Shown one piece after another: positions 1,878 through 25,784 of a stretch of DNA of 34,949 bases (position 1 is its first letter; each line of letters starts with the position of its first letter). Made by a program: the position numbers and the translations under genes. Source of the DNA: an uncultured Sangeribacter sp. (GTDB lineage: Bacteria; Bacteroidota; Bacteroidia; Bacteroidales; Muribaculaceae); contig CAZXHO010000001.1 in the NCBI GenBank assembly GCA_964640365.1, positions 1-34,949 of the forward strand, in the 5' to 3' direction. The notes beneath the pieces are model-generated. The model was not told the DNA's origin, searched no databases, and was given only the letters and a program-made list of their open reading frames with translations.

Positions 1878-3335
1878 TTACAATTTCAAAATTTCAGACT
1901 GTTTGTAAACTCCAAATGTGTGAAGAGCCGGAGTTGCGTTGCCATCAAGAATACGGAGTCGCACGTACTTAGCTGTAACCGGAGAAAAGCGCACAATCCA
2001 TTTGTGGCCCACCGACTGAAGTGCCGATGCCTCCGGAATCATGGTCCAGTCTTTACCATTCTGAGAATATTCCACACACCACGATGTAGTACGATGACCT
2101 AATTCTATCACTTCCTGAAGCATAAGACAATCGAAAGTCTCCTTTTTAGGTAGAGCGAATATAAGATCGGATTTAACTTCTCCGTCTTGTCCGGCATAAT
2201 ATGTCGTCTCATCTTCATCTATTAGATTACGAGCATCGAATTTTTTACCTCGTGAATTGGTGGTAATGATCTTTGCACCTTTAAGAAGATTCTTGCCAAA
2301 AGTTTCATCCAGCCCCTTGCGAAGCGTCACAACGTTCAGAGAATCAATAGAATTCAATAATCCTCGACGGTCAGGAGGAAGATTTAGGAGCAAGACGCTA
2401 TTACGACCGACAGAGTTACAATAGATGTCCCAAAGTTCACTCACAGGTTTTACTCTCGAATCCTCTTCAGGATGATAGAACCAACTTGGGCGAATGGATA
2501 CGTCAGTTTCAGCCGGAATGTAAGCATTGCCATTTTTCACTCCATTGTTGAGACCCTCATAATGGCTTGCCTCGTCGCGGATAGCAATAGAATCGGTAGT
2601 CGACCAGCAGGGGTCGCCGCATTGTCCCGCCTCGTTGCCCATCCAACGAACATCTGCGAAGGGATAGGAGTTTTTTGTTCCAAAAATCACGCAATCCGGT
2701 TGTGCTTTCCTTACTATCTCATACCATTCCGTATATAATGGGGTTGTTAGCTCATCAGCCCCGGCACCATCCCACCATGTTTCCCATATTTTACCATAAT
2801 CGGTCATGAGTTCTCCGAGTTGCTTGGCATAGTAGTCTTTATATCGGGAAGTAGAATAATCCGGATGAAGATGTTCATGGCGATCGTGTGGACCGAGATA
2901 AATGCCGGCTTTAATTCCGTTCTCTTCACAAGCATCGGTAAATTCACGCACCACATCACCTTTACCCCTCTTCCATGAGGAGTTCTTCACGCAATAGTCA
3001 GTATACTTACTTGGCCATAGGCAAAAACCATCGGCATGTTTAGCAGTCAGAATAGCGGCAGGAATACCCGCATTCTTGAGAGTTTCCATCCATTGATTAC
3101 AATCAAGTGCAGTAGGATTGAAAATAGCTGCAGGAGCCTTACCGTCGCCTTCGTTCACAAAATCTTCGAAAGTATTAATTCCGAAATGAAAAAAAGCTAT
3201 CATCTCACGGTCATACCATTCCTTTTGGCGTTCATTGGGAATTGGACCGTATGGCTTTGGTGCATCCTGAGCCTGACCGGTTGTCGTGGCAGAAAGGGTG
3301 AGCAGGATGCCCGATAGTATCTTGTCAAGTTTCAT
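1878..3335 (-). CDS. GH29 alpha-L-fucosidase with C-terminal F5/8 type C (CBM32-like) domain
   Basis: Motifs FFHFGINTF, LTAKHADGFCLWPS, WWDGA (nucleophile), DVSIRPSWFYH, SVGRNSVLLLNLPPD; signal peptide. Confidence 0.95.
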   Translation of the reverse strand: MKLDKILSGILLTLSATTTGQAQDAPKPYGPIPNERQKEWYDREMIAFFHFGINTFEDFVNEGDGKAPAAIFNPTALDCNQWMETLKNAGIPAAILTAKHADGFCLWPSKYTDYCVKNSSWKRGKGDVVREFTDACEENGIKAGIYLGPHDRHEHLHPDYSTSRYKDYYAKQLGELMTDYGKIWETWWDGAGADELTTPLYTEWYEIVRKAQPDCVIFGTKNSYPFADVRWMGNEAGQCGDPCWSTTDSIAIRDEASHYEGLNNGVKNGNAYIPAETDVSIRPSWFYHPEEDSRVKPVSELWDIYCNSVGRNSVLLLNLPPDRRGLLNSIDSLNVVTLRKGLDETFGKNLLKGAKIITTNSRGKKFDARNLIDEDETTYYAGQDGEVKSDLIFALPKKETFDCLMLQEVIELGHRTTSWCVEYSQNGKDWTMIPEASALQSVGHKWIVRFSPVTAKYVRLRILDGNATPALHTFGVYKQSEILKL

Positions 3336-3435
3336 GGGTTGGTTGCTGGTGTTTGAATGTTGAATTTAGAGAAATAGGAAGATTTTAAAAAAGTAGAAAA
3401 AACGAGGAGAGAGAATCGGTTTCAGAACTTGATGG

Positions 3436-3481
3436 CAAAATTACTCATATGTGATTAGACAAGGGATTAACCCGAGGTTAA
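3436..3481 (-). promoter_or_regulatory. Promoter of GH29-GH2 operon: -7 element TAATTTTG preceded by three direct repeats
   Basis: Minus strand reads TTAACC-tcggg-TTAATC-ccttgt-CTAATC-acatatgag-TAATTTTG; TAnnTTTG is the Bacteroidetes -7 consensus. Confidence 0.75.
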
Positions 3482-3577
3482 TTTACTCTAAATTTTAAAG
3501 AAATTTCATTAATCTTCCTCTACTCCCGAATAAAGGGATGCGCCAGAACCGCTAAATTTTGATCAAGCTCACGACAG

Positions 3578-3626
3578 TAGGGGGTTAATTATTTTTTAGG
3601 GGGTTAACGCAATTATTAACCCCTAC
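3578..3626. repeat. Direct and inverted TAGGGG(G)TTAA repeats
   Basis: TAGGGGGTTAA at 3578-3588 and 3597-3607; inverted copy TTAACCCCTAC at 3616-3626. Confidence 0.8.
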
Positions 3627-3661
3627 TTAATCTTATGATTAATAAGCCATATCTAATTTTG
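3616..3661 (+). promoter_or_regulatory. Promoter of susCD operon: -7 element TAATTTTG preceded by three direct repeats
   Basis: Plus strand reads TTAACC-cctac-TTAATC-ttatga-TTAATA-agccatatc-TAATTTTG; same spacing as 3436-3481. Confidence 0.75.
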
Positions 3662-3758
3662 CGCTCAGTTTCAGAACCCTATGGGGCATAGCAGTAATTT
3701 CTCACCAATAACTGCTGCACCTTAAAATTACAAAAATAATTCTATTCATAAACCAATC

Positions 3759-6700
3759 ATGAAAAAACCGAAACCACTTAACACTATCAGAGTACCCCTC
3801 GCCATAGCACTCGGCATTGGACTGATTCCTTCCATTACTCCGGGTGTAAGGGCGGAAGAGGGAACTTTATCCTCTGTATCCATAAATAACGAACAGACAC
3901 TTATTACTTATAAAGGAATAGTGCTCGACACGCAGAATGAAGGTTTACCCGGCGTCACCATACAGGTTGCAGGAACTAAGAAAGCTACCGTCACAGATAT
4001 TGACGGTGGATTCTCCATCGCTGCTCCACGCGGAGCACGCCTTACTTTCACTATGGTTGGTCTGGAGCCAAAAACAGTGACACTCGGATCTGACACCAAT
4101 CTTAAGATACAAATGCTTGAATCTTCACTGTCTCTTGATGAAGTAGTGGTAGTAGGATACGGCACTCAAAAGAAAGAGAATCTAACAGGTGCCGTGTCCG
4201 GTGTGACGGCAAAGGAACTCGAAGACCGTCCTATTACAAATCTTAGCCAAGGTCTGCAGGGTCTTATAGGCAATTTAAATATTTCAGCAAGTGACGGCAC
4301 ACCCGGCCGTGGATTCGGGTTCAATGTCAGGGGTACTACTTCTGTAAACTCTTCCGGTCCGCTTGTATTGGTCGATGGTGTTCAGATGGATCCCAATATG
4401 ATCAATCCTGCAGACGTAGAGAGCGTGTCTGTGCTAAAGGATGCGGCTTCCGCAGCTATCTATGGAACACAGGCCGCTTACGGTGTCGTGCTTATAACCA
4501 CCAAGAAAGGTAAGGAACAGAAGCCAAAACTTACTTTTTCGGCAAATCTCTCATGGAACAGACCTACCAAGATCCCTGAGTACATAGACTCCTGGACATT
4601 TGCAAATTTCCATAATCTCACCAACAGGAACTCAGGCGGAGGCGACTACTATGACCAGACTCAAATGGATCATATATATGCCTATTATACAGATCCATCT
4701 CATAATCTTCCCGTTTACATCGATCCGTCAAATTCCGATAAGTATCTTTATTGCGGCAACACAGACTGGATAAATGAGACCAGAAAGACCACTACACTCA
4801 CTCAACAATATAACGTCTCCATTTCGGGAGGCTCAGGAAAAACCACTTACTACGGATCGGCAGGATTCATGAATCAGGAAGGACAGCTGAAGCACTATGA
4901 TGATAAATATCAGCGTTTCAATGCGTCCTTGAATATCAACTCTCAGGTGTTATCTTGGCTCAACATAGGGATGAAAGCCAATTATAACTATGCTAACCGC
5001 GACACTCCATACGGATCTCACAATAATGACATGGGCTCATCTTTCTATGGTGCTGACCTTCGACCCTTCATGCCCGTATATCATCCCGATGGCAACTATT
5101 CCGGACAAGGAAGCTGGACCAACATGGTGGCAACCCAGGCTCTGTCAGGAAGCCGTATACATAAGGAAAATGACCTATGGCTCACAGGCATTATCCGGAT
5201 TCAGCCACTTAAAGACTGGAATATAAATCTTGATTACACACGCAACATATATTCCATCAACAAGAAATATCATGGCAAAGAAATAATAGAGCACTATGCC
5301 AATCCGGAAGTCACAACTATCTTCCCGCACATCACTCCCAGTACAGTGAAATATACCAACGACAATAACTATTATGATGCCGTAAATATTTATTCAGATT
5401 ATGTTCGTGACTTCGGACTACATAACATTAAACTGTTGCTTGGTTATAATTATGAACACCATAGCTGGGCTTGGTTTGATGCAGAACGTCAAAATCTGAT
5501 AAGTCCCGACATCGCATCTCTCGGAATGGCATATGGAGAGAAATACAATGGCAGCGGTTCACACGCAAGTGCTACAGAGGGCTTCTTCGGGCGTATAAAC
5601 TATAATTATGACAACCGCTATCTTCTGGAACTCAACGGCAGATACGACGGTTCATCGAAATTCCCCAAAAAGAAACGCTATGCTTTCTTCCCTTCTTTCT
5701 CATTAGGATGGAGAATCTCCGGCGAAAAATTCTGGGAACCTATTATTCCCTACGTCAATGAACTAAAGATACGCGGTTCTTATGGTAAGCTAGGAAATCA
5801 ATCGGTTGGTGGAGACTATCCTTATATCGCTACAATGGGTGCCAACGGCGAGATGGGTTATCTAATAGATGGTAAAAAGATTGCCTGTGTAGGCACGCCC
5901 GGACTCGTCAGTCCGTTTCTCACTTGGGAAACAGTTAAACAGGTGGATTTAGGTATCGACTTCGGTGCTTTGAACAACCGTCTTTTCGGTTCATTCGACT
6001 GGTATCGCCGTCTAACCGTAGATATGGTCACAAGCGGAACTCCTCTTCCCGCTGTTCTCGGAACGGGAGCGCCTCAAGCAAACACCGCCGACCTGAGAAC
6101 CGATGGTTGGGAACTTACCATCGGATGGCGCGACCGTCTGCCTTTCGGATTATCATATGATGTAAGCCTCGTACTTTCTGACTATCAGGCTACAATCACC
6201 AAATTTAATAATCCGGAAAACATTATCTCCAACCATTATGTGGGCAAAAAGTGGGGAGAAATCTGGGGATTTGTAACCGAAGGTCTCTTCCAAAGTGAAG
6301 AGGAAGTGGCTGCACATGCCGATCAGAGCGAAATTTATGGTGGGGGATGGTATCCCGGAGATGTGAAATACCGCGACCTTAACGGTGACAACAAGATCAC
6401 CTATGGTAAAGGCACACTCGATGATCCCGGAGACCAAAAAGTGATTGGCAACAGTGAGCCTCGCTACGCTTACGGCATAAAAATCAACGCCGAATGGAAA
6501 AACTTCGATCTCAATCTCTTCTTCCAAGGCATCGGCCAGCGAGATGTAGTGCTTGGAGGCAACCAGTTCTGGGGATTCGGAAACGAATGGCACGTCCCGT
6601 TCAAGCATGCCCTTGATTCATGGACAGAAGATAATCGCGATGCATATTTCCCCCGTTCAACCTACGATAATGTGACAGGAAACCGTAAAACCCAAACCCG

Positions 6701-6929
6701 GTATCTTCAAGATGCATCTTATTTCCGTCTGAAGAACATTACCCTCGGATATACACTGCCTGAAAAATGGATGAAGACTATCGGTTTTGACACCGTAAGA
6801 TTCTTCTTCTCAGGACAGAATCTATTCACCTACGACCACCTCTTCAGTATTTATGATCCCGAAACCCTCGGCCTGAACTCTTACCCACTTCAGAAGTCGT
6901 TTGCTCTCGGCGTAACTGTTACACTCTAA
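3759..6929 (+). CDS. susC: SusC/RagA family TonB-dependent transporter
   Basis: VVVGYGTQKKENLTGAVS, VLKDAASAAIYG..GVVLITTKKG, LTWETV, PGDVKYRDLNGD; 1056 aa; immediately upstream of SusD. Confidence 0.97.
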   Translation: MKKPKPLNTIRVPLAIALGIGLIPSITPGVRAEEGTLSSVSINNEQTLITYKGIVLDTQNEGLPGVTIQVAGTKKATVTDIDGGFSIAAPRGARLTFTMVGLEPKTVTLGSDTNLKIQMLESSLSLDEVVVVGYGTQKKENLTGAVSGVTAKELEDRPITNLSQGLQGLIGNLNISASDGTPGRGFGFNVRGTTSVNSSGPLVLVDGVQMDPNMINPADVESVSVLKDAASAAIYGTQAAYGVVLITTKKGKEQKPKLTFSANLSWNRPTKIPEYIDSWTFANFHNLTNRNSGGGDYYDQTQMDHIYAYYTDPSHNLPVYIDPSNSDKYLYCGNTDWINETRKTTTLTQQYNVSISGGSGKTTYYGSAGFMNQEGQLKHYDDKYQRFNASLNINSQVLSWLNIGMKANYNYANRDTPYGSHNNDMGSSFYGADLRPFMPVYHPDGNYSGQGSWTNMVATQALSGSRIHKENDLWLTGIIRIQPLKDWNINLDYTRNIYSINKKYHGKEIIEHYANPEVTTIFPHITPSTVKYTNDNNYYDAVNIYSDYVRDFGLHNIKLLLGYNYEHHSWAWFDAERQNLISPDIASLGMAYGEKYNGSGSHASATEGFFGRINYNYDNRYLLELNGRYDGSSKFPKKKRYAFFPSFSLGWRISGEKFWEPIIPYVNELKIRGSYGKLGNQSVGGDYPYIATMGANGEMGYLIDGKKIACVGTPGLVSPFLTWETVKQVDLGIDFGALNNRLFGSFDWYRRLTVDMVTSGTPLPAVLGTGAPQANTADLRTDGWELTIGWRDRLPFGLSYDVSLVLSDYQATITKFNNPENIISNHYVGKKWGEIWGFVTEGLFQSEEEVAAHADQSEIYGGGWYPGDVKYRDLNGDNKITYGKGTLDDPGDQKVIGNSEPRYAYGIKINAEWKNFDLNLFFQGIGQRDVVLGGNQFWGFGNEWHVPFKHALDSWTEDNRDAYFPRSTYDNVTGNRKTQTRYLQDASYFRLKNITLGYTLPEKWMKTIGFDTVRFFFSGQNLFTYDHLFSIYDPETLGLNSYPLQKSFALGVTVTL

Positions 6930-6945
6930 TATCGACCTCAATCAC

Positions 6946-8619
6946 ATGAAACTTCATATTAAAATAGCTGCCATTTGTGGCATAGCACTTTTCGCATCAT
7001 GCGAAGATAATCTTAACCTTTATCCCGAAGATTCAATTTCTGAAGAAACTTTCTTCAATAACGTAACTGATCTGGAACTCTTTGCAAACGGATTTTATGG
7101 TCTGCTTCCCGGTGCTCAAGGTCCGGGAGCCGACGATCAGAGTGATTGTTTCGTAAATGAAAAACCTAATACATGGATATTCAATCAAGAGACAAAACCA
7201 ACCTCAGGCGGCGGATGGGGAAGCGGAGACTGGGGTAACATCCGCTCATTGAACTTCTTCATGCAGCGTTATGGCAAAGCATCCGGCAATGAGGATCAGA
7301 TAAATGCCCAAGTGGCGGTGATCCGGTTTTTCCGGGCTTGGGAATATTTCTATAAAATCCGCCGCTTCGGAGATGTGCCGTGGTATGAAACGGATCTCAA
7401 CATCGACTCTCCGGAACTTTTTAATGGAAGAGACAGCCGTAAAGTAGTTTTTGCCCACATGCTGGAAGACATAGACTTCGCTATTGACAACCTGCCCTCC
7501 TCTCCGGCTACCGGCAGACTACACAAGTATGCCGCTCTGGCTTACAAATCGCGCATATGTCTTTATGAAGCGGCATTCAGAAAATATCACGGTCTCGGTG
7601 ATTACGAAGAGATCTACGAGCAGTGTGCAGATGCTTGTAAAAAGATCATAGAATCAGGAAGATATCAAATCTATACCAACAACCATCCTGAAAGCGATTA
7701 CTACAATCTTTTTATTCAGGAAGACCTCTCTACAAATCCTGAGTGTATAATGCCAAGGGTATATGAGGCAAAACTCCTCACGCATAACAATACACGCCAG
7801 TTGGAGGAATCGTACACCGGCATGAGCCGTGCAATGTTCGAGCAATATCTTTGTGCTGACGGTCTTCCAACTGCAGTAAGTCAGGATTATGGAACGGAAG
7901 CTGAAATACCTGCTGATGAACTGGCGAAGCGAGATCCACGTCTTTCTCAAACCATCGACAACCCCGGACTGGCATATAAACTTAAGGGTGATGGGACTCC
8001 AACCTACAACGATGTACCATCCATAGACACCAAATACTGCACCACGGGTTATCACGTAATGAAATATCATTCTCCCGACCCGGCACAATGGAACATCGGT
8101 CTATCCACTCTCGATGTCTTCATCTTCCGCTATGCAGAAGTGCTTCTAAACTATGCCGAGGCTAAAGCTGAACTGGGTGAATGTGATGATGATGTTCTCA
8201 ATCAGACCGTTAATGAATTGCGCGACCGTGTTGGCATGCCCCACCTCGCCGCAAATATAGGCTTCACGGATCCTAATTGGCCGGACTATGGCTATACTCT
8301 TAGCCCGTTGCTGTATGAAATAAGAAGAGAACGTGCCGTGGAGCTCCTCGGTGAGGGTTTCCGTTGGGATGATATTGTTCGATGGAAAGCCGGTAAACTT
8401 CTCGAGAACCCAAAGTCTATGCTCGGCATGAAGGTATCCGACAAACTGCGCGACCAATATGAAAATTTTAACCGCACTCTCAACAGCGAAGGATTCCTTG
8501 TAGTCTATCCCGACAAGAATTCCCGCACATGGGACGACAAACTGTATCTCCATCCGATCCCAATTGAGGAGACTGTAATGAATCCTAATCTTCTTCCCAA
8601 CAATCCCGGATGGGAATGA
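6946..8619 (+). CDS. susD: SusD/RagB family glycan-binding lipoprotein
   Basis: Lipobox FASC; RFFRAWEY, FGDVPW, FRYAEVLLNYAEA, IRRERAVELLGEGFRWDDIVRW, C-terminal NNPGW. Confidence 0.96.
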   Translation: MKLHIKIAAICGIALFASCEDNLNLYPEDSISEETFFNNVTDLELFANGFYGLLPGAQGPGADDQSDCFVNEKPNTWIFNQETKPTSGGGWGSGDWGNIRSLNFFMQRYGKASGNEDQINAQVAVIRFFRAWEYFYKIRRFGDVPWYETDLNIDSPELFNGRDSRKVVFAHMLEDIDFAIDNLPSSPATGRLHKYAALAYKSRICLYEAAFRKYHGLGDYEEIYEQCADACKKIIESGRYQIYTNNHPESDYYNLFIQEDLSTNPECIMPRVYEAKLLTHNNTRQLEESYTGMSRAMFEQYLCADGLPTAVSQDYGTEAEIPADELAKRDPRLSQTIDNPGLAYKLKGDGTPTYNDVPSIDTKYCTTGYHVMKYHSPDPAQWNIGLSTLDVFIFRYAEVLLNYAEAKAELGECDDDVLNQTVNELRDRVGMPHLAANIGFTDPNWPDYGYTLSPLLYEIRRERAVELLGEGFRWDDIVRWKAGKLLENPKSMLGMKVSDKLRDQYENFNRTLNSEGFLVVYPDKNSRTWDDKLYLHPIPIEETVMNPNLLPNNPGWE

Positions 8620-8679: not shown

Positions 8680-9627
8680 ATGCAAATTAATAAATTCTCA
8701 GCATTCTTCCTACTTGCAGCATCTCTTTGTAGCTGCTCTGAATCAGGAAGCGACAACACTGTCTATATTCCCAATGCGGGAGCCTTGGTGAAAGCCAATT
8801 TCTATATCACAGATGAACCGGATGTGCGATCATTCACTGTTAAACTTACACCACGCTCCTATCCTGAACTCGTTGTATCCGGTCTCTCTTCAGATGCAAC
8901 AATCCATATGGCTCCCGATCCGGAAAAAGTGGATGCCTACAATCAGACTCACAATACGGATTACATGCCACTTCCCGAAGGTAGCTACAGCGTAACGGAA
9001 TCGGTAATTATGCCGGAAGGCACCAATGAATCTGAACCGATCTATATTACAGTGAATGCAAAAGGAAAGATAGAACCTTTCAAGGAATATCTATTTCCGG
9101 TAAGCATTACCGGTGCTGAAGGAATAGACTGCAGCGATTGTTGTCAGACTGTCTACTTCCTATACCGTGGAAGCATTGATGCCAGCTCGATGACGTTGCT
9201 CGATCGCTCCGCTTGGACTGTGCTTGATGCCTCATCAGAAGAACCGCGTGAGGGCGACTGGGGGCATAGCGGTCTAAAGGAAGCTTGTATTGATGATGAT
9301 CTCAATACATTCTGGGGCACAGACTGGGCTACTTCCCATCCACAACCACCACACTGGATTATTGTGGATCTTGGAGGCATAACTCATATTCAGGGTGTAG
9401 CGGTACAAGCTCGTGAAGAAGGGTATGACGGACCAAAAACCATGTATCTTGAAGTGAGCAACAACAGTTCAGACTGGACAATGGCAGGGGAGTTCAAGGA
9501 TATACCCGCAGCCGGACAGTTCAGAAGCTTCCTGCCGGAGGCAATAGAGGGACGCTACGTTCGTCTCACCATCACTTCAGTAAACGGGGGACCTCATGTT
9601 ACGGTCAGTGAATTCAATCTTTTCTGA
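8680..9627 (+). CDS. Surface lipoprotein, DUF1735 plus F5/8 type C (CBM32-like) domain; probable surface glycan-binding protein
   Basis: Lipobox LCSC; VDAYNQTHNTDYMPLPEGSY (DUF1735-like); IDDDLNTFW, PHWIIVDLG, GRYVRLTIT (discoidin). Confidence 0.85.
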   Translation: MQINKFSAFFLLAASLCSCSESGSDNTVYIPNAGALVKANFYITDEPDVRSFTVKLTPRSYPELVVSGLSSDATIHMAPDPEKVDAYNQTHNTDYMPLPEGSYSVTESVIMPEGTNESEPIYITVNAKGKIEPFKEYLFPVSITGAEGIDCSDCCQTVYFLYRGSIDASSMTLLDRSAWTVLDASSEEPREGDWGHSGLKEACIDDDLNTFWGTDWATSHPQPPHWIIVDLGGITHIQGVAVQAREEGYDGPKTMYLEVSNNSSDWTMAGEFKDIPAAGQFRSFLPEAIEGRYVRLTITSVNGGPHVTVSEFNLF

Positions 9628-9703: not shown

Positions 9704-9741
9704 AATAGGGTGATATCCGGTATGCGTGGTATCACCCTATT
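9704..9741. terminator. Hairpin between convergent genes, probable bidirectional terminator
   Basis: Perfect 12-bp arms AATAGGGTGATA / TATCACCCTATT. Confidence 0.65.
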
Positions 9742-9760: not shown

Positions 9761-12400
9761 CTATGAATGCTCAATCTCCGAAAACTTGACTTGATATGTC
9801 TCTCCGTATACCTTATGGTAGTTGGCAATAAAAGTGTCATAAAGATTTCGGGCGCGGGTCTTGTTGCCGGTTGCTTCATACGCCTTCACCCCATACTGCA
9901 TAGCCGATTCATTTAAGGCGTCTGTGAGCAACGTAAGATGACTGAACCGGATCACTTCTTTCCATTGTCGCTTCGCTGAGAACTTTTCTATAGTTTTCAA
10001 CATCACATCGAGCATGAATGCTTCAACCGGGGCCTTGTAGCGATCAAGCTCCTCAGATTCCATGCCCTGCAAAAATTTACCTTGCAGAATAATTGTTTCA
10101 ACTTCAGCTTGAGCCTCCTTCCCCGATGGTTCCTTTTGCAGGTCATTAGTCAAAGCGAATAACCTGTAAATATCCACATAACAATTCTCTCCGCTTCTAA
10201 CCATGAACCTTCCATTATCATAAACTATCTCAAGACCACTGAAATCAGAGAGTATTTTCCTTAGCTTGGCAATTGTTACATTGCGCAGATTTTTTATTTT
10301 ATCCGGTTCCTTATCCGCCCAAAACACAGCACTCAGCTCAGAAGCTGTCACACCACTCTTTTTCCATGTGCCAAGAAGAATATATATGAAAATAGCTCGT
10401 AATTTAGGACTGAAAAGATGTGTCACGTCATGTCCGGAGTTATCTATGGCAATGAAAGGACCGAAGAGCGATATTCTGTTTTCATACGGCAAGTCGGGTC
10501 TGGCAGGATTCTCCGGCTCATCACTCGGCAACGTAAACGGCATATTTTCCTGCACCGATTGTTCAGCATCAACGCCACTCTTGAGTACGGAGGATGCTTC
10601 CACGCTATCATTTACGTTGGTAAGAGCGGCATTCTTAATTTCTTTCTCAATAGGCTTTATGCGTTTTCTGTTCCTTCTGACTAAGACAAACATTACACCC
10701 ACGGCAACCAATATCAATACACCTCCAATCCAAAGCCAACACCAGTGAGCTGCTTCCGTATTTGTATCGTAGATGCTTAGTTCAGCTTTAGACACAGGAG
10801 GAGCCACTATGGAATAGATACGCGTATTTGTCGCACCCTCTTTTTCGAATTCCTGCAACACGCAATAAATCACCTCACCGTCTTCGGGCATATATAAAGA
10901 TACATTTGTGGCAATTTCCTCCGAAATCATAGGTATGGTATCGCCAACAGCTATCTCACTTCCGTCAGAGATTGATATTTGATATAGCTGAAGAGTAGTA
11001 TGAGGCTTGTATTCCGCATATGTCATGGCATACATAATGCCACGAGAACCGTCTACAAGAAGAGTTCTTGCCGGCACCCTCTCTTTGTCCGGAGTTTTAT
11101 GTGTCCACAACTTTCGTGCCGTGGAATCACTAAGGGTGATCCGATAAAAATCATAAAAATATTTCACTCCCAAATCCTGTTTACCTTCCTGATTACCCTT
11201 ACCTCCGTAAAGATAAAGCGTATCGCCCGATTCGGAAGCATCCATTGAAGCAAAGAAGCGGGGAGCAATAAAATCACCCTTTAGAGGAATAGTATCAAAC
11301 TTATGTGTGTAAAGATTAAACTTTACAAGCTGATTGGAGTATTTCCGGTCGCCATAACCGCCAAAAAACAACATCGCGCTGTCGTTGGAACACCAAACAT
11401 GGGCATGATGATGAATGGCTTTGTTGTCAACTGTCGCCAACAATTCCCTCCATCTGCCCGAAGCGGGATCAATCTCATAGCTGTAGTTGTCGTAATAAAT
11501 CTCATAAGGATAAATTCGTTTTTGCTTCCCACTATAGAAATTCATGCCATGTTTGACAGGCAACAATCCGGTCCCCGTAAGTGCAATGCGTGTTGTCTCC
11601 CCCTTGATATCATCATAGATGGCGAGTGTATCGGCATTATAAGAATAAAACTTTCTGGCAATGGGATCAAAAGAACAACCTGAGGGTGTCGGTGAACTGA
11701 ATTCCACAAGTTTCTCCCAATAATACGACCGATTTATTTGCCAATTGGGATTGAACACCCTACCGGCTACTTTTCCCCTCGAATCATGAACCCGGGTTCC
11801 TGTACTTTCATTGAGAGGGATTTCAGTTCTCGTCCCGTCTACCTCGATTTCAAGGTCGGAAACTGTCACAGACGCGGTTTCCACTATATAGCGTGTAAGA
11901 CCAAAATTTATTTGAGGAAGAAAATCTCCCGAATCAAGGCCAAGGTTAGTCAAAGGAAATTCTTTACCATCTATAATAGCCTTACCACCGTCCTTACTCC
12001 TGTCTATCCACACTTCCACACCAATTTTTCGGCTCAGAAGTTCTGTGCCGGTAAAACCCACGCTGCAGAATTCGCGCTCACCCTCTCGGTTGAGAGATAT
12101 ATAAAACATATCCTCTTCCCGGCCTTTCCACATCATCAAATTGAGCATGTTCGAAGAATCACGGTCTTTTATACCGAAAATAAAGCCGGAACTATTGACA
12201 TTGTTAACCTTTAATGAAAATGATACTCTGATTTTATCGGCAGAGTTCACCTTGCTGTCAGGGTCAGGCAATATGAGTCCGGAGCGGTTGGCTATATCCG
12301 TTTCATTCCCATGAAACAACAAGCCTTGGCATCGGACTTGCGGTACGTATACTGCCACAATAATAATCAAGACTGATAAAGCTCGTATAAGTCTGTTCAT
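9761..12400 (-). CDS. Membrane-spanning one-component regulator: periplasmic Kelch-like propeller, TM helix, cytoplasmic SARP-like wHTH plus BTAD
   Basis: Signal peptide; Kelch-like FFGGYG and YLYGGKG repeats; TM WCWLWIGGVLILVAVGVMFVLV followed by RRNRKR; ISLFGPF..LRAIFIYILL..ELSAVFW..NLRNVTIAKLRKIL; DALNESAMQYGVKAY..G..ARNLY. Confidence 0.75.
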   Translation of the reverse strand: MNRLIRALSVLIIIVAVYVPQVRCQGLLFHGNETDIANRSGLILPDPDSKVNSADKIRVSFSLKVNNVNSSGFIFGIKDRDSSNMLNLMMWKGREEDMFYISLNREGEREFCSVGFTGTELLSRKIGVEVWIDRSKDGGKAIIDGKEFPLTNLGLDSGDFLPQINFGLTRYIVETASVTVSDLEIEVDGTRTEIPLNESTGTRVHDSRGKVAGRVFNPNWQINRSYYWEKLVEFSSPTPSGCSFDPIARKFYSYNADTLAIYDDIKGETTRIALTGTGLLPVKHGMNFYSGKQKRIYPYEIYYDNYSYEIDPASGRWRELLATVDNKAIHHHAHVWCSNDSAMLFFGGYGDRKYSNQLVKFNLYTHKFDTIPLKGDFIAPRFFASMDASESGDTLYLYGGKGNQEGKQDLGVKYFYDFYRITLSDSTARKLWTHKTPDKERVPARTLLVDGSRGIMYAMTYAEYKPHTTLQLYQISISDGSEIAVGDTIPMISEEIATNVSLYMPEDGEVIYCVLQEFEKEGATNTRIYSIVAPPVSKAELSIYDTNTEAAHWCWLWIGGVLILVAVGVMFVLVRRNRKRIKPIEKEIKNAALTNVNDSVEASSVLKSGVDAEQSVQENMPFTLPSDEPENPARPDLPYENRISLFGPFIAIDNSGHDVTHLFSPKLRAIFIYILLGTWKKSGVTASELSAVFWADKEPDKIKNLRNVTIAKLRKILSDFSGLEIVYDNGRFMVRSGENCYVDIYRLFALTNDLQKEPSGKEAQAEVETIILQGKFLQGMESEELDRYKAPVEAFMLDVMLKTIEKFSAKRQWKEVIRFSHLTLLTDALNESAMQYGVKAYEATGNKTRARNLYDTFIANYHKVYGETYQVKFSEIEHS

Positions 12401-12733: not shown

Positions 12734-13267
12734 ATGGAATTTGAGAAAAAACTGGTGGATGACCTCCACAAATATCTTGTAAGTGAAGGGAAAGTAGATG
12801 AAAAACTTCCGGAATGTCCCGATTTGGAAGATCTTTGGCGTCCTGTAGTTAAAGCCTATATACCCGACGGAGTAAAGGAATTTCAGGAATATCCTGTGTC
12901 CTCTTTAGGATGGATCATGTTCATTGGAATGGCTTTGGCAAAGTATTGGGATGTGGATTGGACAAAATATTCCGGAGAGTCGGGAGAAAGTCTTTATAAA
13001 TCGCTGCGCGATGCCAAAGGTTATGACAATCTCGATGACTATATTCTTGAGGATGTCCTCGGTCTTGATAAAGAAGAGGCAGAAAAAACAGGAGCCATAG
13101 TAGGGGAGTGTGCAGCACGAAGCCTTAGCGCTCTTCAGCATTCGGGAATAGAACCGGGTACAAAAGAAGCCTCACAGGCCTACATATCAGCATTACATGC
13201 ACTCTATACAATGGGCATAGCATTGGAACTTAACGCCCTCGGATACCATATGACAAAAATAGGGTAG
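12734..13267 (+). CDS. Hypothetical acidic cytoplasmic protein
   Basis: 177-aa ORF with AT-rich leader and natural-looking composition; no motif recognised. Confidence 0.75.
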   Translation: MEFEKKLVDDLHKYLVSEGKVDEKLPECPDLEDLWRPVVKAYIPDGVKEFQEYPVSSLGWIMFIGMALAKYWDVDWTKYSGESGESLYKSLRDAKGYDNLDDYILEDVLGLDKEEAEKTGAIVGECAARSLSALQHSGIEPGTKEASQAYISALHALYTMGIALELNALGYHMTKIG

Positions 13268-13454: not shown

Positions 13455-16045
13455 TCATTTCTTTAAATAAACTGAGATCATGAACTCACGACCCCGCAAT
13501 ATGCTTGATCGTTCATGTTGAGCCAGCGCACCATAGGTAGTGTAACTGTAGGTTTTATGATTCAGGATATTAGTAACGGATGCAGAGATTTCAAAGCGCT
13601 TACCAACATTAAATGTTAATTTGGAATCAAGCATCAGGAGGTCTTTGTAACTATTTCCTACTATGCTGTTACGGTAGTATTCTCCGCCTATATAAAAAGT
13701 TAGAATGTCACAAGGTATTAGGGCGACACTCCCCGAATAGATATAATTTGATACTTCCCGTCCTGAAAGACCTGTCATATAGAGCCACGACTTATCCCAA
13801 GTAAATCTGAGATTCCAGTTGATTATGCCGGAAATATTTCCCCTCACATCCGGATTTAAACGAAATGAGTCATTCTTGTAGGCTGTCGCAGTTCCCTGCG
13901 ACACGATATTATTACTTATTCTATTGTAATTAGAATTCAGGCTAACCGATCCTCCCATGAAATCCAGTGTTTTACTTATATGTATCAGTGCAGTAGCGAT
14001 TCCTGAATCAGACGGACGAGAACGGTAAGAATGAAAGATATAATCTCCTACTATGTTTTGTACCATACCGGCTTTAGACTTATTCCATCCGTAATTACCC
14101 ATAGCCCTCAGGGAAAGTCCATTAAGGATGTTGGAATAAGTATAGGCTACTGCCACAGACTGTCCCGAAGTTGAATAATAGTCATCAACTCCGGCATTGA
14201 AAGACCTGTAATCGGTTAGGATTGAAGAGTCGTGAATGTCATGAAGGGAGGCGGGAGAACGGCGCAAGCTACCGCTCAGAATCATAGCCATAGATGGTGT
14301 TGGTTGATATCTCATCGTTAATGAGGGAGAGACAAAATATTCTACTCTATTACTTATACCTCCTGAAAAAAAATAGGAATAAAAATTGACAGGTATATCA
14401 AACGTAAGACCTATTTTTCTATGATTCCATTCTAATTTCGGTGAAGCAAATACACGCAAGTAGTTAGTAGTCAGTTCCTCTCCGTTTGATTGTCCTAAAA
14501 TCTCCAAACCAAATAAATCCGTATTCAGGTTACGCAGATAAGCTGATATACCGGCATTTAGAGATAGATACAAGGGTTTGAATACAAATCCCAAGGCAGC
14601 ACGTTCATCTGTAAAGAACGCATTTTGTTTTATACGTTCTCCGTAATTTTCATCATTGCGGACCACTTTCAGTTTTTCAGGGAGCGAACTCCATTTATTA
14701 CGGCTTGTAAATGTAACCAACTTGTTATTATTGAAACGTTTGATAACTTTCAATAAATTGTTAACATAACCTTCCCTTCTTTCTGCATGCTGGGAATTAT
14801 TAATATTACCTTTTACATCTAAGCTGCGGCTATCCCATGAAAAATCGGCATTGAGAGTATTGTTAAGAAAATAATATTTTTCATTCACCTCGTATGAAAA
14901 CTTTCCTGTGACCGCTTTTTTATGTGCAAGAGAGTTGATATCTTCAATAATTACCTTATCGCCGGAATCAAGGAAATAAGTTGTCTTATTAATGACCCCG
15001 GAGGTCACTCTATCTTGGTTATAGTCTACTTGAAACTTAATTTCCCCATTCTTCTTGGTTTTATAAGATGGCTCGAAGATACCATCCATGAGCGGTTTAA
15101 ATAAGTCCTGCTTCTTTGTAGGTTAGGTACAGCTACGGTGGAAAGGGAGATATAGCCTTTCAGATTCTCATCTCTATTATCGGAAGTGAAATCTATAAGT
15201 TGATCGGAAAGATTACGGCCCGTGTTGTTACCCTTTAACGTAGTAATCATTTGGTAGTTACCTTTAATCATCATGGTGAATATATCACCTTGCCATAGGC
15301 TTCCACACGGTTGTTGAGACCATCCGCCACCCAACATACCATGAACAAGAAAAGTAGCTTTAGCCTTATTTTTCATTTTCAGATTAATTGCTGCCTGCTC
15401 TGAGAAACTTAGCCCTCTTAAAACTTGCATGGGCTCATGTTTCTCCATCACTTCCACAGCCCCGACATCGTCATGGGCTATTCCATTCGTTGCTACTCCA
15501 TATTTTCCTCCAAGAAGGTCATTTCCTTCTATATAAAATTTATTTATATCCGTGCCTTGATACTGTATCTTACCATTATTAGCCACGTCAATCCCAGGTA
15601 ACCTCTTTAGTACATCGCCTATTGTTCGGTCTTGCTTTTGGGCAAAACTACCGACATTGTATACTATTGTATCACCGTTTTGACGTATTTTATCGGCTTT
15701 GACTACGACCTCTTCCAATCTCATAGCTCCAATCTCCATGGGTATGCTTATTGGCTGCCCATCAAATCTCACGACTTTGGAATATGGTTGATAATTCATC
15801 ATAGTAGCACTTATCACAATACTGTCAGCTAATTCCTTTGTCTTAATAGAAAAATTTCCGTTTTCGTCAGAAGAAGAATATCCAATAAGTTTTCCATTAA
15901 GGTTCTTAACTATTATATTAGATCCCACTACCGGCTGGTGAGAAATTTTTTCGTAAATATCACCATGAATTAGAGCCTGTGCCATAAGTAACGGACAGCC
16001 AATCAAAAACATGAATAATAAACTAAGATCCCTACTTTTCTTCAT
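13455..16045 (-). pseudogene. GLPGLI-associated outer-membrane beta-barrel/TonB-dependent-like receptor with N-terminal CarboxypepD_reg-like domain, split by a 1-bp frameshift near 15059-15062
   Basis: N-half from ATG 16045 (MKKSRDLSLL; LEEVVVKA, GDTIVYNV, DVLKRLPGIDV, INKFYIEG) stops at 15026. C-half continues in another frame to a barrel-like end LRGREFMISVYLKK. One extra A gives continuous SSHLIK-TKKNGEIKFQVDY. Confidence 0.8.
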
Positions 16046-16910
16046 GGGGATAATCGGTTTCCTCAAAATCATAGTTTGAATGGGGTTTATGAGCCCTTTT
16101 CTTTGCCTTTGAAGGATCAAGACCATATTTCCCTGACATAAAGATTTTATACCCAAGGTCTTCATGAAGAGCTTTGTACTTTCTTTGGAGAGCCTTTATC
16201 CTTTCAGACTTTGTATGGCCAGATCCCGGATGGAAATCCTTAACGTATCCTATACCCTCTGTTTCCACAGAAACTGCCTCATACCTGTAATCCTGCCGCA
16301 AGTCTTCGGCAAGAAGGATAAGACCCGGTAAGCCCCAGAGTTTCCAAGGACCATCAGATATCGGTATCTCAGGTGTGAAGTAGACTTTCCAGTTTCGTCC
16401 CCTAAAACTACATGTTGCCATTATGCACTCATAGTTTAGCATAAGAGCCGTAGAATCGGGATATACTTCCCAGGCAGGCTTTTCAAGAGACTCCGGTATC
16501 TTCCAGCCCATCAAATCAAAACGGTCATATGTGATCAGGGCTCCCTCACTAAAATTCTTGAACACCGCATCTCTCGGAAGACGGTAATGTCTCCTTGATG
16601 CCTCCCTGTCATCCCATAATGCGTGGCGGTAGGCTTCATTCTTGCGGATGATGGAATCCTCCTTAACACACTCTTCATTGAAAAATGAACTGATATTGTT
16701 TCCTATTTTAAGAGTCATCGGATACCTTTTGAAATCCCCGAGACGGTCAAGAGTATCAGTCACAATTGTTCTTTCGTATACCACCTTGACCAAAGCTTTT
16801 TCAATTATTGTATCGGTTTTGGCAGCCGACAGATTCAAACCACATTGCAGCCACACCAAGATGCCCAACGCAATTTCCCAACACATCCTGACTGTCTGTT
16901 TTTTTCTCAT
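16032..16910 (-). CDS. GLPGLI family protein
   Basis: C..ATCSFRGRNWKVYFTPEIPISDGPWKLWGLPGLILLAED signature; signal peptide; stop overlaps the start of the barrel gene. Confidence 0.93.
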   Translation of the reverse strand: MRKKQTVRMCWEIALGILVWLQCGLNLSAAKTDTIIEKALVKVVYERTIVTDTLDRLGDFKRYPMTLKIGNNISSFFNEECVKEDSIIRKNEAYRHALWDDREASRRHYRLPRDAVFKNFSEGALITYDRFDLMGWKIPESLEKPAWEVYPDSTALMLNYECIMATCSFRGRNWKVYFTPEIPISDGPWKLWGLPGLILLAEDLRQDYRYEAVSVETEGIGYVKDFHPGSGHTKSERIKALQRKYKALHEDLGYKIFMSGKYGLDPSKAKKRAHKPHSNYDFEETDYPHEEK

Positions 16911-16981
16911 ATTATAACTTTATCAGTTTAAAATTTTCGGACTAAAGTTATATTCAAATTTATGGTAACGGATAAAAAATG

Positions 16982-17027
16982 AGTTCAGTTTTTGTTCAGA
17001 AATTAGTGACCGAACAAAAACCGAACT
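16982..17027 (-). terminator. 18-bp inverted repeat: terminator of the TPR gene and/or operator upstream of GLPGLI
   Basis: AGTTCAGTTTTTGTTCAG / CCGAACAAAAACCGAACT; both mismatches are G.U pairs in the minus-strand RNA, followed by CAUUUUUU. Confidence 0.6.
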
Positions 17028-17049
17028 ATAAATATATTATATAATATTC

Positions 17050-18768
17050 TTATAATAAGTGAATTATATCATCAACAACATTAAGTTCCATCTTCTTGTC
17101 AAATAGCTTCAACCCAAGGACGTCTTTTCTATACACAATGGTAGATTTCGCCCTATCAACCAGGCAAGAGATATTAGTAGAGCTGATTCCACATTTAATC
17201 AGAAGCACAAGATGAAAATCTGTCGGTTTAATTTTACCACCTGCAAGGATATTGATTCGCTTTTTTAAATTGGGATAACTTTTAAGCACCACCTCCTCAA
17301 GCTTACTCCAAAGAGGATTGTTTTCCGTTAGAATACGGTTAGTGCGTACATATTCACAAAGTTGATGGTAAGCTTCAGAGTCTAATATAGCATAAGGAAC
17401 TGATTTTGAGGGTACACCGGTCTGTCGGAGAGCAAGAATTTTCTCTCTCATATCTGCCTGCATATTTTCCATCTTAACCGCATTCCCTACTAAAAAACAC
17501 TCTTGCAAATTAATCGGCTGGAAGCCTTCTATCAACTCCCTCTTTTCGAGGGAATCACAAAGCATGCTCACATATCCAATTGTCTGAGGCATTTCTAATA
17601 ATTGCGATTCATGCCTATTTCGTGATAATAACAAGAAAATTCCCATTATTAGCAATAGAAACACGCTGCCTCCAAGCACACAGTATAACCTACGGTTATC
17701 TGCTTGCGCCGGCAGCATTTTACTTTCGTGTATGTAATAGTTGTAAAAAGAATTTTGAATCAGTGCTTCCTGATTTCCGTTTATAAGGATAGATCTCTCC
17801 ATCTCATCCCAAAACTCATTGAGGTGGATTCTCAGACTGTCAGGCGATACAAATTTTTTTAATTCCGGAGAAAACATGAGCCCATATCCATATTTTCTAT
17901 TTGTAGAACCGGTCATGTTAAGAAGCTTGTTGGCAAATAACAAGGCTGAGTCGGGCATTTCCGCTTTTCTATATATTAAACCAGCGTATGAGAGAGTCAT
18001 GGCATTACTGAATAAGATGGAATCCCGCAAGGAGCTATGGATGAAATACAGAGCTGAGTCTATATCCTCCGCATTATATTTCAGGGCACCAAGATATACA
18101 TTATGCCTGGATGTATCTGAAGGCGATATGAGAGCTCCAAGCTTTTTTGCCTTCTTAATATTATTAGTTGACAGGATATATTCCTGCTTTTGTAAATATA
18201 TGTTTGCCAGAAGTTCAGTGGCATACATAAGTTTTATGGAATCTTGGTTCGCTACGTTACACTCAATTGTCCTTTCTACATAAGGGATCGCCCTATCATA
18301 TAGACGCAGTGTAGTAAACACACGGGCTGTTTGCCATAATATATTTCCCTTCAAGGTCACATCTTTTCCCGTCTCCCCAAACTTGTCTAAGGCAGTATGA
18401 TAGTAATTTAAGGCAGTTAAAAAGTCACCCATATCATGATAGACCCTTCCTGCGTAATACAATGCCTCGGTATATCTTCCAAAATGCTTATTATTTTCTT
18501 CGTAACCGATCACTCTCAATATGAGGCTGTCGGAGGTGTGCTCTATAAATGCCCTCTCTTTTGACTTTATCAATAAGAAGTCATAATAATGTCTATCCGG
18601 ATCCGACAGACGGTGGCAATTGATAGACACAAGCGAGTCAAGCGCTTCTTGTGGAGAATGCGATATCAGTTCTTCTATAGCAACCAGGCGCGGATCAGGG
18701 GGAGGGTGATTGCCACAACCGGAGAAGAATATGGAAAATAGAAAAAGTAGGATTATACCGACAATCAT
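17050..18768 (-). CDS. TPR-containing membrane-anchored putative transcriptional regulator (TPR sensor, TM, C-terminal HTH)
   Basis: Lipobox-like FFSGC; TPR EALYYAGRVYHDMGDFLTALNYYHTAL; TM LYCVLGGSVFLLLIMGIFLLL; C-terminal LLIKCGISSTNISCLVDRAKSTIVYRK (LuxR-like HTH). Confidence 0.75.
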   Translation of the reverse strand: MIVGIILLFLFSIFFSGCGNHPPPDPRLVAIEELISHSPQEALDSLVSINCHRLSDPDRHYYDFLLIKSKERAFIEHTSDSLILRVIGYEENNKHFGRYTEALYYAGRVYHDMGDFLTALNYYHTALDKFGETGKDVTLKGNILWQTARVFTTLRLYDRAIPYVERTIECNVANQDSIKLMYATELLANIYLQKQEYILSTNNIKKAKKLGALISPSDTSRHNVYLGALKYNAEDIDSALYFIHSSLRDSILFSNAMTLSYAGLIYRKAEMPDSALLFANKLLNMTGSTNRKYGYGLMFSPELKKFVSPDSLRIHLNEFWDEMERSILINGNQEALIQNSFYNYYIHESKMLPAQADNRRLYCVLGGSVFLLLIMGIFLLLSRNRHESQLLEMPQTIGYVSMLCDSLEKRELIEGFQPINLQECFLVGNAVKMENMQADMREKILALRQTGVPSKSVPYAILDSEAYHQLCEYVRTNRILTENNPLWSKLEEVVLKSYPNLKKRINILAGGKIKPTDFHLVLLIKCGISSTNISCLVDRAKSTIVYRKDVLGLKLFDKKMELNVVDDIIHLL

Positions 18769-18903: not shown

Positions 18904-19908
18904 ATGAATTTCAAAAATAAATCTATGAAACTATTTTCACCCCTTGTTGGCTTGGCTGTAGTGATGCTGTCTGTACCTGCTTTCGGACAGGCACACCGGC
19001 AGCCCAAGTTTAGAACTGATGTGCCCCGTGACTCCATAATTCTGAGTGATCCGGCAATCCTGGCAGACAAAGCTACCGGGACATACTATATGACAGGAAC
19101 CGGAGGAATGCTTTGGAAAAGTAAGGATCTTGAAAAATGGGACGGTCCGACAAAAGTGACAATTCCTGATTCACTTTCATGGACCGGGGCAAACCCTGCA
19201 ATATGGGCTGCTGAACTCCATAAATATGACGGCAAATATTATTATTTCGCTACTTTCACCAATGAAAAGACACGCCTTCCGGGAGATTTACCCAGAAGAA
19301 GTTCTGCAATTTTCTCATCCGATAGCCCGGAAGGTCCCTATACTCCGATAGCTTCCCGGAGCCAGACACCCGAAGAGAAACTGACTCTCGACGGAACATT
19401 CTGGGTTGAAGACGGTGTCCCCTATATGGTATATTGCCACGAATGGCTACAGAACAATGACGGGACGGTTGAGATGATTCCTCTCACTTCAGATCTTACA
19501 AAAGCCACCGGCGAACCAGTGCTTCTATTCCGTGCTTCCGAGTCCCCATGGAGCAGGGAGAAGATTGATGGTAAAGTTGGTCCTAACCGTGTCACCGATG
19601 GGCCTTGGCTGTTTCGTACCGGGACAGGGAGACTGGGCATGATATGGACAAGCTGGATATACGATGTCTATACTCAAGGTGTGGCATATTCTGAAAGCGG
19701 GACACTCGCCGGTCCGTGGATACAGGAGCCGGAGCCGATTACTCCGCCCAATTTCGGTCACGGAATGATATTCACCGATTTTGATGGGCGGACACTGCTT
19801 TCCTGCCATTCCCACCGTGTTGGTGAAAAAGGACGATACATTAGGGTTCCACACTTATTTGAGATCGATCTTTCAGGTGATAAATTAGAAGTAATCAGAC
19901 AACTCTGA
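18904..19908 (+). CDS. Glycoside hydrolase family 43 (five-bladed propeller), secreted; start may be 18925
   Basis: SDPAI, WAAELH, TLDGT, YCHEW, VTDGPW, FGHGMIF motifs; signal peptide. Confidence 0.9.
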   Translation: MNFKNKSMKLFSPLVGLAVVMLSVPAFGQAHRQPKFRTDVPRDSIILSDPAILADKATGTYYMTGTGGMLWKSKDLEKWDGPTKVTIPDSLSWTGANPAIWAAELHKYDGKYYYFATFTNEKTRLPGDLPRRSSAIFSSDSPEGPYTPIASRSQTPEEKLTLDGTFWVEDGVPYMVYCHEWLQNNDGTVEMIPLTSDLTKATGEPVLLFRASESPWSREKIDGKVGPNRVTDGPWLFRTGTGRLGMIWTSWIYDVYTQGVAYSESGTLAGPWIQEPEPITPPNFGHGMIFTDFDGRTLLSCHSHRVGEKGRYIRVPHLFEIDLSGDKLEVIRQL

Positions 19909-21331: not shown

Positions 21332-21344
21332 TTCTCAAAAAATC

Positions 21345-22445: not shown

Positions 22446-22515
22446 ATTGTCGGGATAATTAATTAGCTGTAATAAAGGATTTTTTATCAGTTATAAGTAA
22501 ATTTTCGGAAGTTCT

Positions 22516-23769: not shown

Positions 23770-23782
23770 ATTATTTTCCGGT

Positions 23783-25003: not shown

Positions 25004-25784
25004 GTAAGTCGTTGGTTAGAGATTCGCTATCGGAAATCGTAAACACGTCTTCTACGGATTTTTCCACCGGGTTATGGGCCACGGGGTGTCCGTTATGGTC
25101 AACTAAACCATTTGGCACGATAACACCGTCAGAAATGCGTATAAGACGGTTGGTTTGCTGGGCTACCCCGGGATCATGAGTTACGATTATTATGGTTTTA
25201 CCCTCTTTCTCGTTAAGCTCCCTGAAAATATCCATCACATCGTGAGATGTCTTACTATCGAGAGCACCGGTAGGTTCGTCGGCAAGTATAATCGAAGGAT
25301 CAGTGATCATAGCCCTGGCAATGGCAACCCTCTGTTTCTGACCTCCGGAAAGTTCTCCCGGCAGATGATGGGCCCTGTCGGCAAGTCCCATCTTCTCGAG
25401 TTGTTCCATAGCAAGGCGGTTACGCTTCTTCCTTCCTACTCCCTGATAAAAAAGTGGCAGCGCTACATTTTCTACCGCATTCTTATAATTAATCAGATTG
25501 AAAGACTGAAATACAAAACCGATCATCCGGTTTCGGTATTCGGCAGCCTTATTCTCACTGAGATTCTTTATCAAAGTATCGCCTATATAGTATTCTCCCG
25601 AATCATAGTTATCGAGAATACCAAGAATATTCAGTAGCGTAGATTTTCCGGAACCGGAAGCACCCATTATAGAAACCAGCTCACCCTTATATATGTCGAG
25701 GTTGATGCCTTTGAGCACATGGAGCGGCACAGCACCGAAATATGTTTTGTTGACGTCTCGCAGACGAATCATTTCTTCGTTCAT
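24996..25784 (-). CDS. ABC transporter ATP-binding protein (MacB/LolD-like)
   Basis: Walker A GASGSGKS, signature LSGGQKQRVAIARA, Walker B ILADEPTGALD, VTHD. Confidence 0.96.
   Translation of the reverse strand: MNEEMIRLRDVNKTYFGAVPLHVLKGINLDIYKGELVSIMGASGSGKSTLLNILGILDNYDSGEYYIGDTLIKNLSENKAAEYRNRMIGFVFQSFNLINYKNAVENVALPLFYQGVGRKKRNRLAMEQLEKMGLADRAHHLPGELSGGQKQRVAIARAMITDPSIILADEPTGALDSKTSHDVMDIFRELNEKEGKTIIIVTHDPGVAQQTNRLIRISDGVIVPNGLVDHNGHPVAHNPVEKSVEDVFTISDSESLTNDLHD

Follow-up and report, generated by a model that had tools for sequence, protein, structure and literature searches.

A membrane-spanning SARP/OmpR-type regulator and its predicted TTAA-repeat operator in a Muribaculaceae polysaccharide utilization locus

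The control of polysaccharide utilization loci (PULs) is usually described in terms of hybrid two-component systems (HTCS), extracytoplasmic function (ECF) sigma factors or SusR. Here we analyze a regulator of a further class, encoded on contig CAZXHO010000001.1 of an uncultured Sangeribacter sp. (the window, meaning the whole stretch of 34,949 nucleotides that was analyzed). The PUL occupies the left 12.4 kb of the window. The regulator gene (9761..12400, minus strand, 879 aa) is convergent with a plus-strand operon that encodes a susC-like TonB-dependent transporter (3759..6929, TIGR04056), a susD-like lipoprotein (6946..8619) and a lipoprotein with a BT_3987-like N-terminal domain and an F5/8 domain (8680..9627), likely a surface glycan-binding protein. 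A 423-bp divergent spacer separates this operon from a minus-strand pair, a GH29 gene close to PDB 3EYP, which is BT2192 (1878..3335), and a Ricin-B lectin plus GH2 beta-galactosidase-like gene that continues past the contig edge (3..1871). The regulator gene is single-copy in the host genome, a Bacteroidota genome that is 71.6% complete.

The initial annotation described the regulator as a signal peptide, a Kelch-type extracytoplasmic part, one transmembrane helix, a linker and a winged helix-turn-helix (wHTH) followed by BTAD. Hydropathy, Pfam and structural models all confirm this architecture. The full-length AlphaFold2 model, built from 87 sequences, has a pLDDT of 90.5. The hydrophobic N-terminus is a predicted signal peptide (residues 1-24; 12329..12400, minus strand like all parts of the gene), and the alignment has a conserved mature start at Q25-G26-L27. 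What had been read as one Kelch region of about 530 aa does contain Kelch repeats, but it is better described as two domains covering about 520 aa, a sandwich and then a propeller. DSSP on the model makes residues 25-221 (approximately; 11738..12328) an all-beta sandwich. It is probably ConA/LamG-like, a suggestion that comes from the Atlas entry for a homologue, P0193 (score 0.93, 102 of 256 features in common, PF13385 on 40% of cluster members); fold searches with the whole model return matches dominated by the Kelch domain. That domain is a six-bladed beta-propeller of 24 strands by Pfam and the model (222-537; 10790..11737). It aligns with the Kelch domain of LZTR1 at Z 22.0 (root-mean-square deviation, rmsd, 3.3; 273 aligned), carries near-invariant H330-H331-H332 and FGG/YGG motifs, and has Pfam Kelch matches at residues 303-461, with Kelch also present in all 41 homologues. 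The single transmembrane helix (about 552-574; 10679..10747) appears in the model and as a hydropathy peak at 556-574 (10679-10735), is followed by a basic RRNRKR, and has its counterpart in exactly one internal hydrophobic segment in 41 of 41 aligned homologues. Behind it come a linker that is disordered in the model (578-628; 10517..10669; pLDDT<50), an OmpR-type wHTH (about 636-738; 10187..10495) recognized by the model, a fold match and conservation, and a BTAD/TPR-like activation domain (about 743-878; 9767..10174) recognized by the model and a fold match. Linker and wHTH-BTAD fully account for the cytoplasmic part.

The argument for the SARP module is structural. The C-terminal profile alone, by sequence, matched TPR proteins only, so the SARP assignment needed folding, and a single-sequence search of the PDB with the regulator gave nothing significant. 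Folded alone, the C-terminal 251 residues have a pLDDT of 94.3 and a pTM of 0.88. All six Foldseek matches of this model at E<=0.001 are AfsR or EmbR chains. Streptomyces AfsR and Mycobacterium EmbR both have a wHTH followed by BTAD, as the regulator does, and their matches have Z scores of 15.0 (AfsR; rmsd 5.1, 231 aligned), 14.8 and 13.7 (EmbR) over about 230 residues; the next match, TPR-only, has 10.6. The fold that the initial annotation had predicted for the C-terminus is therefore found when it is compared with AfsR and EmbR. There is also a profile match to AfsR 8hvr (E 9.4e-4) and a match to NF053617 (E 2e-4) that lies far under that model's cut-off. The Pfam BTAD model misses the window protein and matches 28 of 41 homologues at E<=0.05. 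The predicted recognition helix reads K703-N704-x-R706-x-V708...R714, and the pattern N-x-[RK]-x-V...R is kept family-wide, which fits one shared core operator. Scans with Pfam and a domain library found no kinase, receiver or AraC domain in the regulator, in agreement with the first look at the sequence, and Pfam found none in the 41 homologues. A prediction of a periplasmic homodimer (two copies of residues 41-539), with a score of 0.00, yields no verdict either way. The automatic label 'galactose oxidase' on the homologues must be rejected. Galactose oxidase has a seven-bladed propeller and a C-terminal domain that gives a copper ligand; here there are six blades and the transmembrane helix follows directly after the propeller.

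On sequence grounds the regulator belongs to the Bacteroidota 'SARP/OmpR' PUL regulator family of BT2204 and BT3853. It aligns full-length with the orthologues of BT2204 (33% over 868 columns, E 7e-157) and BT3853 (22% over 910 columns, E 9e-50). Both were taken from a B. thetaiotaomicron genome (G331) that holds four paralogs of the regulator, and their identity rests on the order of genes and on promoter rows in the literature. One paralog heads susC, susD, a 231-aa protein, GxGYxYP, GH92, GxGYxYP, two LamG-like genes and GH99; we take it to be BT3853 because this order matches the BT3853-BT3862 PUL described in PMC4071793 (for this and the other papers cited here, in the portions available to us). 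The promoters of the G331 loci match the published start-site rows of BT_3854 and BT_2203 (PMC7366714, supplement 3). The idea that the class is new is thus not borne out. 'SARP-OmpR' is already named among the predicted PUL regulator families, with Terrapon 2015 cited (PMC7641319), and a deletion of BT3853 has been reported: the protein is required for induction of P-PUL69 by alpha-mannan, the deletion abolishes the response, and no di- or trisaccharide tested activated it (bioRxiv 10.1101/2025.07.13.664583).

The family counts 1,151 representatives at E<=1e-30 and, judged by the record titles of 77 loci, is almost wholly Bacteroidota. Its distribution is patchy, with 2 of 60 congeners and at least 4 of 300 phylum genomes carrying a member, the latter being a lower bound from three candidates scored per genome. 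At least one of susC, GH92, GH76, GH29 and GxGYxYP occurs within the fetched DNA of 67 out of the 70 full-length loci. The window regulator lies beside susC/susD, and susC is found in 57 of the 70; GH92 occurs in 38 and GH76 in 18. A FastTree tree, which carries long-branch warnings and no true root, and from which all partial or split genes and 8 loci that duplicate or nearly duplicate others were left out, places the window protein in a clade of 23 rows (support 100); every one of the 17 tree loci with the close GH29 falls into it. As an aside, the regulator appears to be split, frameshifted or truncated in loci L012, L015, L021, L024, L030, L019 and L139, by assembly error or real inactivation. 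A locus labelled Lachnospiraceae (L056) groups with Bacteroidales susCD/GH76 loci and is probably mis-binned. The Atlas also lists Bacteroidota clusters called 'putative AfsR/SARP family transcriptional regulator' (431 aa, LamG_3 on 68%, score 0.82) that may be a shorter, Kelch-less relative.

The initial annotation also pointed to matched repeat boxes at both promoters of the PUL. These are real and go beyond chance: a matrix made without the window gives the window susC promoter the top score of all 5.2 million positions in the genome, 41.8 against 21.7 for the next, with 4 matches above 12. On the susC side (plus strand) there are two inverted boxes in GGTTAA orientation (3578..3607), A with its TTAA at 3585-3588 and B at 3604-3607. 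The predicted operator of direct repeats follows (3616..3644): C, TTAACCC at 3616; D, TTAATC at 3627; and E, TTAATA at 3639. A -7 element, TAATTTTG (3654..3661), whose spacing is drawn from B. thetaiotaomicron start sites, predicts a start near 3666 and puts the three boxes at -50, -39 and -27. The GH29-facing predicted operator (3453..3514, minus strand, score 18.8) has C starting at 3481, D at 3470 and E at 3458, with upstream box A at 3509-3514 and a degenerate box B. Its -7 element is likewise TAATTTTG (3436..3443, minus strand), with a predicted start for GH29-GH2 near 3431. Taken by itself, the simple 8-mer does not reach significance in the window, since 8 of 100 shuffles reach 3 matches, and a strict -33/-7 pattern has no match at the PUL promoters. 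The promoter of the regulator itself scores only 3.7 with the three-box matrix, and BT_3853 is reported not to be induced by mannan, so the regulator is likely constitutive.

The conservation of these boxes carries the case for the operator. The close GH29 is common to 25 loci, where five boxes are conserved in the promoters facing susC and GH29. The order in orthologous promoters is two GGTTAA about 20 nt apart, then 8 nt, TTAACCC, and 11 nt on TTAATC, with a TTAA 11-12 nt further and then a TAnnTTTG -7 element. A three-box matrix built from 19 orthologous promoters was applied, at a threshold of 17 or more, to 48 loci without orthologous genes. It finds a site in 36 of the 48, and 40 have p<=0.05 when the intergenic DNA of each locus is dinucleotide-shuffled 40 times for comparison. 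Nearly all of these sites lie 65-314 nt ahead of the first gene of a GH92, GH76, GxGYxYP or susC operon. None of 30 control susC loci from relatives has such a site, a control weakened by the fact that these loci extend only about 1.5 kb upstream. Among the susC upstream regions of the host genome one of 16 has a site, which is the window's, and 4 of 130 tiles of 20 kb have one. The whole genome has 6 sites at this threshold in 5.24 million positions; two are the window promoters and four are non-PUL. One match, C91:4294, was rejected as a regulon member as it overlaps the start of an ORF that is presumably amidophosphoribosyltransferase-like.

The geometry is also regular. The -7 element follows the scored box by 38-40 nt in 46 of 53 motif-selected promoters and by 49-50 nt, one repeat further, in 6. 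In both published start-site rows the 51-nt window opens exactly with box C (PMC7366714, supplement 3), so that the boxes come to lie at -50, -39 and -28/-27, and the -7 element spans -12..-5. We believe that an operator of TTAA(C/T)C boxes spaced by about 11 bp, ahead of a TAnnTTTG -7 element, is a well-supported prediction from sequence comparison.

Several points weigh against this reading and should be kept in mind. The 48 test loci are kin, roughly a dozen lineages by our reading of the FastTree tree, so the counts overstate their independence; L143 and L144 are duplicates of L020 and L006 and were not taken as independent. Five of five distant phylum loci (21-24% identity) have no site at 17 or more, their best scores being 16.5, 13.2, 13.0, 9.9 and 7.8. 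The Flavobacteriaceae clade scores 12-14. So does the clade of the fourth B. thetaiotaomicron paralog, where a TTAA array can be made out by eye that is degenerate but keeps the spacing. On the protein side, the rmsd of the C-terminal model to AfsR is high (5.1-5.9 A), and the lectin identity of the sandwich domain is a lead.

A natural swap bears on the link between regulator and operator. A B. thetaiotaomicron PUL with the same GH29 (72%) and GH2 (61%) follows an ECF sigma/FecR pair (L142:2623-17690) and directly adjoins the BT2204 PUL. It has no operator site of 12 or more in 20 kb. The same enzymes under ECF sigma control thus come without the operator, which supports the link. Another exchange is seen in loci L002-L042, where the regulator keeps its GH29-GH2 pair but not its susC/susD pair. 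Two unrelated susC/susD types occur in PULs with the regulator, GH29 and GH2, one 65-85% identical to the pair in the window and the other about 28%, and the operator is kept ahead of both: the regulator is constant and the transporter modules are interchanged. Separately, a rearranged locus (L005:5213-5225 / L143:12133-12271) keeps the GH29-facing promoter and its boxes, which point at the 3' end of the regulator with no gene behind; this is an orphan promoter left by an inversion.

The sensor-activator-operator circuit that the initial annotation proposed is therefore supported by the folds, the PUL linkage and the conserved boxes, and its operator more strongly than could be argued at first. 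From sequences and models we think it probable that this one-membrane-helix protein senses imported oligosaccharide and activates both divergent operons through the TTAA repeats. Basal import by susCD would bring the oligosaccharide into the periplasm, where the sandwich-Kelch region would bind it. Binding would cluster or rearrange the regulator, and the flexible linker would give the membrane-tethered DNA-binding modules access to the promoter with no need for phosphorylation. Two AfsR protomers lie side by side on repeats of 11 bp (-40..-30 and -29..-19), where they touch sigma region 4, the beta flap and alphaCTD (PMC10936776). The boxes at -39 and -28/-27, from the start sites of the homologues' targets, overlap this -40..-19 geometry (the window positions are predicted). 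Because the box position matches the repeats of AfsR, protomers would sit head-to-tail on D and E, at about -39 and -28, as in AfsR; box C and the inverted A/B boxes would take up additional protomers. Contacts of the kind made by AfsR, with sigma region 4, with the beta flap and with alphaCTD, would then recruit RNA polymerase at both divergent promoters. We infer the binding, the ligand and the signal transfer, and the contacts with sigma region 4 and alphaCTD by analogy.

Other mechanisms have to be considered. Regulated proteolysis could free the cytoplasmic SARP module, with the same sensor and operator, and CadC is reportedly activated in a cleavage-dependent way. The long, disordered and unconserved linker could be the cleavage zone. 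However, the distance from the transmembrane helix to N641 varies from 16 to 109 aa among 150 homologues, with no conserved residue in the linker, as would be expected of a tether more than of a cleavage site; in the published description SusR, too, spans the membrane and has its DNA-binding C-terminus in the cytoplasm (PMC2757170). We consider proteolysis unlikely. It is more improbable still that the TTAA array is bound by a more general factor or is intrinsic to the promoter, with the SARP acting elsewhere or indirectly. TTAA is AT-rich and common, the distant family members lack a strong operator match, and four non-PUL sites exist in the host genome. Against this, the array is absent from the control susC loci and from the ECF-controlled PUL with the same enzymes, and it stands ahead of GH92, GH76 and GH29 operons that are unrelated to one another and have the regulator as their common gene. 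The least probable mechanism is repression, in which the protein occupies the -33 region until ligand releases it. Boxes D and E do cover that region, but loss of BT3853 removes induction without giving constitutive expression (bioRxiv 10.1101/2025.07.13.664583), and AfsR activates from the same position (PMC10936776).

Our conclusions on what is sensed are the most tentative. A fucosylated ligand is plausible because the PUL carries GH29. The window GH29 matches PDB 3EYP at E 2.7e-254. This structure is BT_2192, which is specific for Lewis-type branched fuco-oligosaccharides and is also a beta-galactosidase according to one review (PMC4365749). Another review gives the side activity of BT2192 as alpha-galactosidase, and this disagreement weighs against a firm choice. 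Our best guess, held with slightly less than even confidence, is a Lewis-type fucosylated, galactose-containing oligosaccharide. A non-fucosylated signal, either a mannose-containing fragment or a partner protein, seems to us doubtful, yet it is a stronger competitor than any of the mechanisms just discussed. Most family members adjoin mannosidases, as the GH92 and GH76 counts attest, BT3853 answers to alpha-mannan and to no di- or trisaccharide tested, and the top Kelch fold matches bind peptides. Set against this, the clade of the window protein holds all the close-GH29 loci, and it is the GH29-GH2 pair that stays with the regulator when susCD is exchanged. With all 17 GH29 loci in one clade and GH92 or GH76 so frequent across the 70 family loci, the data suggest that the family senses mannan and that one branch has been re-tuned, in a direction that is tentative because the tree is unrooted.

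It is instructive to compare the regulator with the systems it resembles. BT2204 (PUL29) and BT3853 (Sensor-PUL69) have the same domain order, PUL adjacency and promoter boxes. Their PULs carry GH92/GH99 mannosidases, whereas the window PUL carries GH29 and ricin-GH2, and unlike them it has two divergent promoters and extra inverted upstream boxes. Compared with AfsR and EmbR, the SARP module is C-terminal, anchored in the membrane and fed by a periplasmic sensor, and the NOD, TPR extension and FHA domain of those proteins are missing; the target boxes (TTAA(C/T)C) and the promoter, of the Bacteroidota -7 type, also differ. Classical actinobacterial SARPs are soluble and have the module at the N-terminus; here it comprises residues 636-878 behind a transmembrane helix. 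The regulator works like a SARP, and it should not be classed as a classical actinobacterial one. ToxR and CadC-type regulators are likewise membrane-bound with an OmpR-type wHTH, but theirs is N-terminal, so the topology is opposite, and the regulator has a BTAD in addition. HTCS resemble it in joining a periplasmic propeller-type sensor to a DNA-binding output in one chain; their kinase, receiver and AraC domains are the ones that Pfam did not find in the regulator or the 41 homologues. SusR shares the one-component topology of signal peptide, periplasmic sensor, one transmembrane helix and cytoplasmic DNA-binding C-terminus (PMC2757170), but the folds of SusR-like regulators differ. A predicted SusR operator consists of two sites with 67 or 77 bp between them (PMC3878776), in contrast to the 11-bp arrays described here.

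The class is thus known but mechanistically undescribed, and the operator is newly predicted. In the literature open to us BT2204 and BT3853 are named, or in the case of BT3853 deleted, with no domain architecture or operator given; subscription papers, PULDB and RegPrecise pages and closed supplements may hold more. The regulon reconstruction of B. thetaiotaomicron that predicted the SusR and HTCS operators makes no mention of SARP or BT3853 in the available text, nor of BT3853, BT2204 or SARP in five supplements (PMC3878776). The available main text of a TTR survey mentions no BTAD, Kelch or SusR (PMC10269533). We see an even case for a broader view, that this is a fourth PUL switch: a membrane-tethered SARP with a lectin-Kelch sensor, a family-wide operator (TTAA(C/T)C at -50/-39/-28) and AfsR-style activation of -7-type promoters without phosphorylation, of which one clade would have been re-tuned from mannans to Lewis-type host glycans and which would be interchangeable with ECF sigma control. 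The predicted operator is testable at once in the model strain, where BT3853 mutants and PUL reporters exist. If it is true, the regulons of PUL29 and PUL69 could be predicted and rewired, and the structurally solved mode of SARP activation would also hold for a sensor in the membrane and for promoters of a non-standard type. One possible use would be as a compact glycan biosensor made of a single protein. The analysis also corrects the common labels 'galactose oxidase' and 'Kelch protein' across the family.

The remaining features of the window are of lesser importance here. A GTT-N4-AAC element lies at about +3..+13 of the susC promoter (3668..3678, plus strand), with a second copy on the GH29 side (3419-3428). 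It is kept in 16 of 24 orthologous promoters, is not genome-specific, and is possibly a site for a second, repressing factor. We do not assign it to Cur/BT4338: its core resembles wwwTATGTTnTAnAACATAwww, but the flanks do not, and only 2 of the 67 own-genome matches of its matrix adjoin a -7 element. A perfect 12-bp inverted repeat (9704..9741) between the convergent genes is possibly their shared terminator, with no call there from the terminator scan. A 177-aa ORF divergent from the regulator (12734-13267) has no Pfam or NCBIfam match. Further on come a TPR protein (572 aa), a GLPGLI protein and a TonB-receptor-like gene (15026-18768), the last apparently split into overlapping ORFs (15026-16165 and 13455-15089). 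Two GH43 genes (18904-19908 and 27956-29566) lie outside the PUL with no operator site of 17 or more nearby, and between them is a MacAB-TolC-like cluster (20024-25784).

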